Part shown: positions 2,768 to 6,134 of the stretch, in pieces
How the letters are laid out: each line of letters begins with the position of its first letter
Position numbering within the stretch: position 1 is the first letter of the stretch
Source of the DNA: Candidatus Wukongarchaeum yapensis
GTDB taxonomy: Archaea; Asgardarchaeota; Wukongarchaeia; Wukongarchaeales; Wukongarchaeaceae
DNA: 6,195 nt
Direction of reading: 5' to 3'
Assembly: GCA_016840425.1 (NCBI GenBank)
Contig: JAEOSI010000138.1
Span: 1-6,195 of the forward strand
Made by a program: the position numbers and the translations under genes
Notes under the pieces: model-generated
Told to the model about the DNA's origin: nothing
Database searches by the model: none
Seen by the model: the letters and a program-made list of their open reading frames with translations, nothing else

Positions 2768-3946
2768 TTGATAACTAATGTTTATATAATAAGGCATGAT
2801 GGTTTACCTCTTGTTTCGTGGGGGCTTTTTGAAAGTCATCCTTTAGAGCTCATTTCGGGCTTTTTAAGTGCTATTTTATCATTTTCCACGGAATTGGGCT
2901 CGAAAAAACTTAATCTTCTTGATTTTGGGGACAAGAAATTTATTTTTAAAATTGAGAGCGATTTACTTTTTGTCTTGGTAGTGACAGAATATAGGGATTT
3001 TGCTGAGGGTATTGGGGTTTTAGAACTTATTGCTTCAAAATTTCAGGAAAATTACAATTTAAAAGAGGCGTTAAAATCGAACGTGGATATGTCATATTTT
3101 AAAAATTTTGAGGAGGATATTGTGACCATCGTCAAAGGCCCTATTGTGAGGGTTCAGGAAGAGCTTTTTGAGCTTTGTAGTAAGCAGGAGATAAAGGCAT
3201 GTGCAACCATCACGATGAAGGGCACCACGTTCTTACATGCTGAATCACCATATTTTTCAGGAGATTTAAAGCCGATTATTGATTTCGTAGTTTATTTTAT
3301 TAAGGGTCATAAAATTCTTGGTCGAGGACAACCCATCGAGTTATTCTTCTCCGATGACATTGGGCATATTTTTATTCTTCACATAGTTTCAGACATCTAT
3401 TTTTTTGTATTGGCTGAAAAAAAGTATTCATACACCTCGATCAGACGTATTATAAATCCGCTGTTAAATGAGTTAAGATCTGCCTTTAAAATGGTTTCAC
3501 CTGATTTCTTCTATGGACTAGAAACAAAAGATATTATTGAATCGTTTTTAGTATGGGCTAAAGATATTTATCCTTTTTCTAGTTTAAACTTGGACTTGTA
3601 TGATATCATTTTTGAGCCTTTAATACCGTATGATAATCGTTTTGTTCACTTTGATGCAATATTTCAACGTGGAAAAAGGTTCATTTTTTTGAGGGTTATT
3701 AAGGGAGCATTTCCCGCTTCAGACAAAAATGTTGAACAGGTTGTTTTTGATGTTAAATCGGTGTTAGGTGATAAAGAACTGATAATGGCAATATTATTGG
3801 GCCCAGAAGGAGTTTCAAAGAATGCGATTATAGCTGCTAAAAGACTACCAATAAGGATAAATGAGTTCTTTAAGTTTGTAACGCTTGTAACCATAGAAAA
3901 AGGAGAATTTAAAATAGTACCCTACGAAAAGCTCGTCCCTACTTAA
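2768..3946 (+). CDS. Multidomain protein: longin (aa ~1-122) + roadblock/LC7-like (aa ~127-241) + degenerate Mrr-type PD-(D/E)XK fold (aa ~252-392)
   Basis: Longin pattern: NVYIIRHDGLPL, LISGFLSAILSFS, beta-meander KFIFKIESDLLFVLVV, LELIASKFQENY, FKNFEEDI. Roadblock pattern: IKACATITMKGTTF...GQPIELFFSDDIGHIFI..VSDIYFFVLAE..SIRRIINPLLNEL. C-terminus HFDAIF..IFLRVIK..NVEQVV..AILLGPEGVSKNAIIAAKRLPIRI resembles Mrr_cat. TTG start 8 nt after AGGAGG; in-frame TGA at 2738 bounds the ORF. Confidence: ORF high, longin good, other two domains moderate. Confidence 0.72.
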   Translation: MITNVYIIRHDGLPLVSWGLFESHPLELISGFLSAILSFSTELGSKKLNLLDFGDKKFIFKIESDLLFVLVVTEYRDFAEGIGVLELIASKFQENYNLKEALKSNVDMSYFKNFEEDIVTIVKGPIVRVQEELFELCSKQEIKACATITMKGTTFLHAESPYFSGDLKPIIDFVVYFIKGHKILGRGQPIELFFSDDIGHIFILHIVSDIYFFVLAEKKYSYTSIRRIINPLLNELRSAFKMVSPDFFYGLETKDIIESFLVWAKDIYPFSSLNLDLYDIIFEPLIPYDNRFVHFDAIFQRGKRFIFLRVIKGAFPASDKNVEQVVFDVKSVLGDKELIMAILLGPEGVSKNAIIAAKRLPIRINEFFKFVTLVTIEKGEFKIVPYEKLVPT

Positions 3947-5032: not shown

Positions 5033-5689
5033 ATGGCAAGGAAGAATAGAGGTTTTTTCATAGTTTTTGAGGGTATTGATGGTTCAGGGACCAGCACACA
5101 TACACGGAAGGTCTCTACATGGCTTAGGAATTCAGGGGCTGAAGAAGTGGTACAAACAAGTGAACCCACAAAAGGCAAGATAGGGCGACTGATAAAGGAA
5201 CGGTTAAAAGAAGGAGGAGAGGAGAGAGGTAACAATATTGAGGAGGCAGTTATTGATGCTCTTCTTTTCGCAGCGGATCGGGTAGAACATGTAAAAAAAG
5301 AGATTTTACCCGCTCTTAACGAGGGAAAGATAGTGGTTTGTAGCCGTTATGTTGAAAGCTCGATCGTTTACCAAACCACGCAGGGATTAGATACAAATTT
5401 TATGGAGAAGATAAACAAGTATACGGTAAACCCTGACCTCGTAATAATCCTCGATATACCTCCAGAAATAGCCTTAAAAAGGGCAAAAAGGAAGAGATGG
5501 GAAAAATTTGAAAACAAACTTTTCTTAACAAAGGTAAGAGAACTCTACAAAAAAAGGGCAAAAGAAAAAGGATACACCCTCATAAACTCTAACCGTAACA
5601 TAAAAGAGGTAGAGAAGGATATCCAAAAAATCGTTTTAAAACACCTAAAAGAAACATTAAAAATCCAGATCGAAACCGAAAAACAATAA
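5033..5689 (+). CDS. tmk: Thymidylate (dTMP) kinase family protein with atypical catalytic motifs
   Basis: FIVFEGIDGSG(T)ST, SEPTKGKIG, LLFAADRVEH, ILPALNEGKIVVC(S)RY..SSIVYQ, PDLVIILDIPPE, KFE..LFL.KVRELY. ATG at 5033; the TTG at 5030 is an alternative; GGAG at 5018-5021. Confidence 0.9.
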   Translation: MARKNRGFFIVFEGIDGSGTSTHTRKVSTWLRNSGAEEVVQTSEPTKGKIGRLIKERLKEGGEERGNNIEEAVIDALLFAADRVEHVKKEILPALNEGKIVVCSRYVESSIVYQTTQGLDTNFMEKINKYTVNPDLVIILDIPPEIALKRAKRKRWEKFENKLFLTKVRELYKKRAKEKGYTLINSNRNIKEVEKDIQKIVLKHLKETLKIQIETEKQ

Positions 5690-5714
5690 TAATGAGAAAA
5701 CCTATTATCACCTT

Positions 5715-5778
5715 GGTGGCGATGAGGAAAGAGCAAAGAACCTGAAAAAAGATGAGGGATCGATGGGCAGTCCGAGCC
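5715..5778 (+). ncRNA. Candidate archaeal box C/D guide sRNA
   Basis: C box GCGATGA 5719-5725; 16-nt guide; D' CTGA 5742-5745; 3-nt loop; C' AAGATGA 5749-5755; 16-nt guide; D CCGA 5772-5775; closing stem GGT (5715-5717)/GCC (5776-5778) leaving a 3-nt K-turn bulge. 5711-5810 is 53% GC in a low-GC window. Confidence 0.7.
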
Positions 5779-5816
5779 TCCGCCACAACGCAAAGAAGTT
5801 TACGGAGGGAAAGAAA

Positions 5817-6134
5817 TCAACGTTGGGACTTAAGGCGTTCTAACACCTCAGAAAAAGTTAAATCTTCTTCGATTAAAACCTGCTTTTCTCGGGATTTTAA
5901 ACCTTTAACTATTTTAATCTTCGAAGAGCTCAAACCAAATGTTTTAGACAAAATTTTTACTAATTCCTTGTTTGCTTTCCCGCCCGTGGGGGGAGATTTT
6001 AAAAACACAACAATAAATCCCTCATTTTCATCAAAAAAAACTTCTGATCTCCCACTTTTTGGCTTCACAAAAACATTAAGAACAACACCATTACCCGAAC
6101 CATCACTAACAATAATATCCACAATTAACACCAA
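5817..6134 (-). CDS. DUF167 / UPF0235 (YggU-like) protein
   Basis: VVLNVFVKPKS, VFLKSPPTGGKANKELVKILSKTFG, IKIVKGLKSREKQVLI. The start could instead be the GTG at 6131 or 6122 (the latter has a GGTG SD-like site upstream). Confidence 0.92.
   Translation of the reverse strand: MVLIVDIIVSDGSGNGVVLNVFVKPKSGRSEVFFDENEGFIVVFLKSPPTGGKANKELVKILSKTFGLSSSKIKIVKGLKSREKQVLIEEDLTFSEVLERLKSQR

Follow-up and report, generated by a model that had tools for sequence, protein, structure and literature searches.

Does the short gap between two convergent genes of an Asgard archaeon encode a guide RNA and, if so, which nucleotide would that RNA modify? We addressed this in a window of 6,195 nt (the whole stretch of DNA that was analysed; contig C140 of genome G000) from Candidatus Wukongarchaeum yapensis, whose genome has 2.16 Mb and is 92% complete. 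Its sister genome (G001) is from the same genus, and their order has three genomes in our set. The candidate lies in a 127-nt gap between the thymidylate kinase gene tmk (plus strand) and a convergent DUF167 gene (minus strand). The original prediction put a box C/D sRNA at 5715-5778, outside the open reading frames and about 25 nt past the tmk stop; both statements hold, with no Pfam-supported ORF covering the locus and position 5715 being 25 nt after the TAA. Sequence comparisons argue that this is a real, previously unannotated box C/D sRNA, and it very probably directs 2'-O-methylation of 16S C1402 (E. coli numbering) as a single-guide archaeal RNA. Guide RNAs of this class, how they work and this target are known from other archaea and eukaryotes; what is new is this Asgard member, which fills an annotation gap. 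The features are as follows.

5033-5689, plus strand: tmk (Pfam PF02223, E 4e-46), upstream gene on the same strand, stop codon TAA at 5687-5689
5714-5785, plus strand: complete sRNA with its extended terminal stem (predicted ends; core at 5718-5778)
5718-5720, plus strand: 5' strand (GGC) of the K-turn canonical stem, pairing with GCC at 5776-5778
5722-5728, plus strand: box C AUGAGGA, in the corrected register (homologue alignment)
5729-5741, plus strand: D' spacer of 13 nt, an orphan or decayed guide (target search and comparison with the sister genome)
5742-5745, plus strand: box D' CUGA (from the sequence; the same in the sister genome)
5752-5758, plus strand: box C' AUGAGGG, forming a K-loop with D' (homologue alignment)
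5759-5771, plus strand: D guide of 13 nt, antisense to 16S 1398-1408 in E. coli numbering (11-bp duplex)
5772-5775, plus strand: box D in the variant form CCGA, for which G5726 in box C compensates
5817-6134, minus strand: DUF167/YggU gene (Pfam PF02594), convergent

The probable host transcript of the sRNA is that of tmk, and co-transcription of the two is plausible (the promoter scan was for sigma-70 promoters, a scope that archaeal promoters fall outside). The original prediction also pointed to the position antisense to the probable DUF167 3' UTR, with a minus-strand T6 at 5745-5750. The corresponding A6 is present on the plus strand; the antisense position is incidental, because DUF167 adjoins the sRNA in this genus only (orthologues of other families lack it), whereas tmk precedes the sRNA in four families, and antisense control of DUF167 was discarded for the same reason. 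Elsewhere in the window, positions 2768-3946 (+) encode a 392-aa protein with no Pfam match, whose longin/roadblock-like N-terminus and restriction-endonuclease-like C-terminus were recognized by eye only. Between this gene and a KaiC-like gene lies a long A/U-rich perfect hairpin (2600-2640) followed by a minus-strand U run, which is a probable terminator and the source of weak leader-family matches.

Box layout and K-turn geometry

The C-D'-C'-D motifs were correctly located by the original prediction, including box D' (CUGA) at 5742-5745 and box D (CCGA) at 5772-5775, and it is the register of the other two boxes that changes. We fixed the register from an alignment of 40 homologues, in which box C reads AUGA(U/G/A)GA and box C' reads AUGAnnn followed by a guide of 12-13 nt (columns T38, G39 and A40 of C' are almost invariant). 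Boxes C and C' are accordingly AUGAGGA and AUGAGGG, so both spacers have 13 nt; they had been read 3 nt too early, and the symmetric 16-nt guides, thought to be unusually long, become guides of ordinary length. Box C as GCGAUGA, which belongs to the 16-nt-guide register, is excluded by the homologue alignment and by K-turn pairing. The overlapping C' register AAGAUGA (5749-5755) is geometrically possible and is not the homologous one.

A full K-turn is obtained in the corrected register only. Its C-stem consists of the pairs G5718-C5778, G5719-C5777 and C5720-G5776, followed by a three-nucleotide bulge (G5721-A5722-U5723), the tandem G.A/A.G pairs, and then G5726-C5773 and G5727-C5772. K-turns usually have a U.U pair where this one has a G-C pair: the unusual box D CCGA is compensated by the unusual box C, whose G5726 pairs with C5773. 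Box C', for its part, is imperfect, and this and the G-C pair count against our reading. The k-turn of U4 has G-C at position 3b.3n and folds on binding L7Ae (PMC4382518), and the sRNA is U4-like at the same position. The terminal stem is extended beyond 5718-5720/5776-5778 by the pairing of 5714-5717 with 5782-5785, where the wobble U5717.G5782 is replaced by C-G in the sister genome, and the tmk-linked orthologues are likewise closed by GGC...GCC/GCU. Two features of archaeal box C/D guide sRNAs are therefore found here, namely a K-turn from boxes C and D with a terminal stem, and an internal D'/C' K-loop with spacers of about 12 nt (CUGA/AUGAGGG; 13 and 13 nt).

The box layout by itself is weak evidence: it occurs 9 times in the genome, as compared to once in the reversed genome and 2-6 times in Markov controls. 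This sRNA is the one layout among the nine with both a 3-bp C-stem and at least 9 Watson-Crick guide pairs to rRNA. Its predicted fold energy is no better than that of shuffled sequences. An Rfam scan of the locus gave no family at the gathering score, the weak matches to several C/D families being driven by the boxes; the top one, snoU54 (RF01277; 25.3 bits versus a cut-off of 35), covers box C and the stem and not the guide, and homology to U54 was dropped. We note that other C/D candidates in this genome also have the compensated AUGAGGA...CCGA combination (C100:4051-4099 (+), as well as layouts on C17 and C215), and that the D' guide of the C100:4051-4099 candidate makes 10 bp with 23S (own position 2853).

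The D guide and its 16S target

The 16S and 23S rRNA genes are assembled in this genome, 25 tRNAs were found, and 5S is unassembled. The D guide pairs with own positions 1400-1410 of the 16S in an 11-bp duplex that is flush with box D and has 10 Watson-Crick pairs and one G.U, at -20.2 kcal/mol as compared to -14.7 at the next site in 16S and 23S, and 5 of 300 shuffled guides match its score anywhere in these two rRNAs. The N+5 base G5767 forms a Watson-Crick pair with own C1404, which is C1402 of E. coli (counted on the E. coli 16S record). N+5 positions G5767 and A5737 had been assigned correctly in the original prediction, and the C that it named within ACUGC*CC turns out to be 16S C1402 of the same genome; its suggestion of an orphan guide does not apply to the D guide and stands for the D' guide. 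As far as sequence matching goes, only the D' half of the sRNA is an orphan.

Fibrillarin, Nop5 and L7Ae-family proteins are all encoded in the genome: the fibrillarin (PF01269) and Nop5 (PF01798) genes are adjacent on C172, and two PF01248 genes are present (the L7Ae family, which also includes L30e; the members were not told apart). A search for RsmI found none here, and none of 19 further Asgard genomes gave a match above the cut-off. Following established box C/D biochemistry (PMC6009581), L7Ae would bind both the K-turn formed by C/D and the K-loop formed by C'/D', Nop5-fibrillarin would then assemble on the sRNA, the D guide would anneal to pre-16S 1398-1408, and fibrillarin would methylate the ribose of C1402 in the P-site at the top of helix 44 (predicted methyl-transfer substrate of the D guide: ACUGCCCGUCG). 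The D' arm would only hold the particle architecture, guiding nothing, and the sRNA would have the role that the protein enzyme RsmI has in bacteria. We are less firm about how the sRNA is released. Because the short gap to tmk is conserved, we propose that it might be freed from the 3'-terminal part of that transcript, being trimmed back to the stem that the proteins protect.

The modified nucleotide Cm1402 corresponds to Cm1639 in yeast and Cm1703 in human, and lies in the P-site (PMC11542601). I. hospitalis has a guide and yet a methylation level under 50%, and N. equitans has the modification although no guide was found (PMC5389701); methylation at C1402 is possibly partial. Our reading predicts that Asgard archaea place this universally conserved decoding-site modification by a guide RNA, like eukaryotes, and not by RsmI.

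Homologues and the nucleotide at position 1400

This genome and its sister show 0 differences over the 52 nt that make up the stem, the boxes and the D guide, versus about 7% for flanking sequence and the ends of the coding regions (with one sister genome, only modestly below background). Lack of box conservation in relatives had been put forward as part of the grounds for dropping the candidate, and we observed the opposite, as orthologues keep the boxes and the guide. The guide-plus-box pattern is found in 84 of 301 genomes of the phylum, as compared to 22 for the backwards control, and a full layout was seen in 37 of the 72 pattern matches inspected, the others being chance. A model built from the full-layout homologues detects held-out orthologues in further families (only held-out matches were counted, the match on the window itself being circular). 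Seven genomes from four families (G000, G001, G012, G027, G037, G007 and G017; 7 of 27 tmk matches) have the sRNA about 30-45 nt past the tmk stop. Ten assemblies of near-identical strains were found via the tmk protein, and the sRNA is unchanged among the matches listed (7-8), which is uninformative.

The model search did not find the guide in families f6, f9, f13, f14 and f16 or in G002 of the same order (which does not imply absence), and neither guide nor RsmI was seen in the genomes searched from these several large Asgard families. A metagenome scan with a genus-specific pattern gave no matches, and no description of Asgard C/D sRNAs was found in the literature searched. Some Asgard homologues are arranged differently. 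L066 (G011:C71, ~16385-16440, minus strand) has swapped arms, with the C1402 guide in D' and a helix-27-like guide in D, the arm order of the published Sulfolobus, Ignicoccus and Methanopyrus RNAs. Family f19 (L060 of G104, L063 of G065) has the C1402 guide on the strand of a 5S rRNA gene that starts about 200 nt further downstream, with two 5S-like copies at L063. The Hermodarchaeia 16S genes at L095 (G032) and L108 (G059) carry an insertion of about 30 nt inside ACACAC/ACCGCCCG, at the 5' edge of the target of the C1402 guide, where full guide pairing is possible only after, or just beyond, the splice.

Outside Asgard archaea, the same guide in a full layout was found in genomes of Thermoplasmatota, Bathyarchaeia, Nitrososphaerota, Caldarchaeales, Methanofastidiosum and DPANN. 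It is also in three sRNAs detected by RNA-seq, Methanopyrus kandleri sR114, Sulfolobus acidocaldarius sR122 and Ignicoccus hospitalis sR11 (Dennis et al. 2015, PMC4644070, Additional file 1), the last of which was proposed for Cm1402 (PMC5389701). Like our sRNA, these have the guide core GAUGGGC(G/A)G directly before the box, are aimed at 16S C1402 and have the C-D'-C'-D layout; they carry the guide in the 5' (D') arm, whereas our sRNA and most Asgard homologues have it in the 3' (D) arm. Our sRNA differs further in the guide A that faces U1400 and in having an orphan as its other arm. We note that L180 (Ca. Iainarchaeum) and L171 have two or three guide-plus-box-D copies within 8 kb, of which a single one has its 5' half complete, so that duplication or decay is possible, and that the contigs of L171 and L217 are labelled bacterial but carry sRNAs of archaeal type and are probably misbinned.

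Archaeal sR12 (Pyrococcus and Sulfolobus; a prediction by Gaspin) has been described as the counterpart of yeast snR70/SNORD43, with homology left open (Hoeppner and Poole 2012, PMC3511168). Its site is equivalent to that of yeast snR70, which is the nucleotide targeted here. The printed consensus of Rfam sR12 (RF01147) lacks this guide and the model had no match to the locus at E up to 10; the locus is likewise absent from the 7 weak genome matches of the SNORD43 model (RF00221), and snR70 is absent among the weak matches at the locus in the Rfam scan as a whole. With no match to the sR12 and SNORD43 models, the link to these families is by target: SNORD43/U43 and yeast snR70 (Rfam clan CL00059) act on Cm1703 in human and Cm1639 in yeast, equivalent to E. 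coli Cm1402. Bacterial RsmI yields the same product nucleotide as a stand-alone enzyme, with no guide RNA. The homologue set, in which a constant D guide is combined with an exchangeable D' guide, linkage to tmk and the U1400 match, is useful for asking whether sR12-type RNAs and SNORD43/snR70 share ancestry, and a 10-nt guide fixed by its target is insufficient alone to settle the ancestry of SNORD43/snR70.

At the target, the 16S of this genome reads ACACACUGCCCGUCG, with U at 1400 and A5769 of the D guide opposite. U1400 is unique to this genome among the 85 genomes matched by the pattern, and two Asgard families missed by that pattern also have it. We excluded a misbinned 16S as the source, as the contig flanks match the sister genome and the tetranucleotide profile is typical. 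Where a genome has both guide and target, a G in the guide is combined with C1400 in 27 cases and with U1400 in 1, and an A with U1400 in 5 and with C1400 in 4 (these genomes are kin and not independent); the A/U match at 1400 suggests an association among related genomes, with no strict rule, and is not decisive. A.C mismatches opposite 16S 1400, 1404 or 1399 occur in different lineages (L134, L196 (Bathyarchaeia), L215 (Thermoplasmata), L214 (Wolframiiraptor); L275, L277, L274; L278, L280, L282), and seem tolerated among C1402 guides. C-to-U editing behind the A opposite C1400 in other archaea is unsupported, such mismatches being found opposite 1399 and 1404 too. C1400U sharply lowers mRNA-bound occupancy of E. 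coli orthogonal ribosomes and cripples 30S subunits in that orthogonal background (PMC8986856). This lineage might naturally carry U1400 in the P-site with its C1402 guide changed to match, the tmk-linked D-arm guide being an old, vertically inherited, target-tracking Asgard gene; we offer this tentatively and lean against it. If true, the guide would be a usable marker for the origin of eukaryotic SNORD43/snR70, by descent from an Asgard guide or by convergence.

The D' arm and alternative readings

The best flush match of the D' guide to rRNA is 6 bp, equalled or beaten by 167 of 300 shuffles, nothing above 8 bp was found in the 25 tRNAs, and neither 16S, 23S and these tRNAs nor a search of the rest of the genome for perfect 11-mers yielded a candidate target beyond chance. 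A target is thus found for one arm and not for both, with 5S and some tRNAs missing from the assembly. An RNA of that missing set (5S or an unassembled tRNA, given that 25 tRNAs only were found) could be what the D' arm methylates, or the arm could pair weakly upstream in the 16S (GUCCCUGCUCCUU, ~1379-1391), where the D' spacers of G000, G001 and G012 each rank in the top 2-4% of rRNA windows. We consider such dual guiding very unlikely: the upstream site is not the best one, and the D' arm as a decayed guide for it is suggestive and a minor rival; the N+5 pair there is an A.C mismatch in this genome, and the N+5 base itself is A here and G in the sister genome; and purine-rich spacers easily match pyrimidine runs. 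The spacer also varies within a genus, with 3 differences in 14 columns between G000 and G001 and unlike spacers in G007 and G017, and about 28% of Pyrobaculum guides are orphans (PMC6009581). The arm looks orphan in the tmk-linked sRNAs that were checked (G000, G001 and G012) and is exchangeable in the guide family, targeting 16S helix 27 in two families (10-11 bp). BLASTN matches to the D' region in G026, G015 and G022 were taken as chance, with no C'-guide-D after them.

Single-guide methylation of C1402, which we prefer, also has to be weighed against a role of the sRNA mainly as an assembly chaperone or checkpoint that binds 16S 1398-1408 with little or partial methylation. The low Cm1402 level in I. 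hospitalis (PMC5389701) and the A.C mismatches tolerated by orthologues opposite 1399, 1400 or 1404 would suit such a role, as would homologues of other lineages that join this guide with a helix-27 guide, an arrangement that Dennis et al. proposed for chaperones (PMC4644070). Here, however, the N+5 pair is a Watson-Crick G-C within an unbroken 11-bp duplex, and the second guide needed for bridging is without a target, which makes a mainly chaperoning sRNA improbable; the two roles are not exclusive. That there is no functional RNA at all, the boxes being a chance pattern or part of a terminator or antisense element between convergent genes, is hardly credible even though control genomes contain 1-6 such layouts, the fold energy is at shuffle level and Rfam gives no gathering-level match. 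The combination of stem and rRNA target is unique in the genome, the guide is conserved from Asgard archaea to Sulfolobus and Methanopyrus, the sRNA stays by tmk where DUF167 does not, and weak folding is usual for C/D RNAs, which fold on protein.

We note that the 16S gene of this genome (G000:C165, own positions ~871-905, L001) has an insertion of about 35 nt that follows GCAAGGCUGAA (near E. coli 908). This probable rRNA intron splits the helix-27 site that is targeted by the D' arm in other lineages, and might relate to the loss of that arm.
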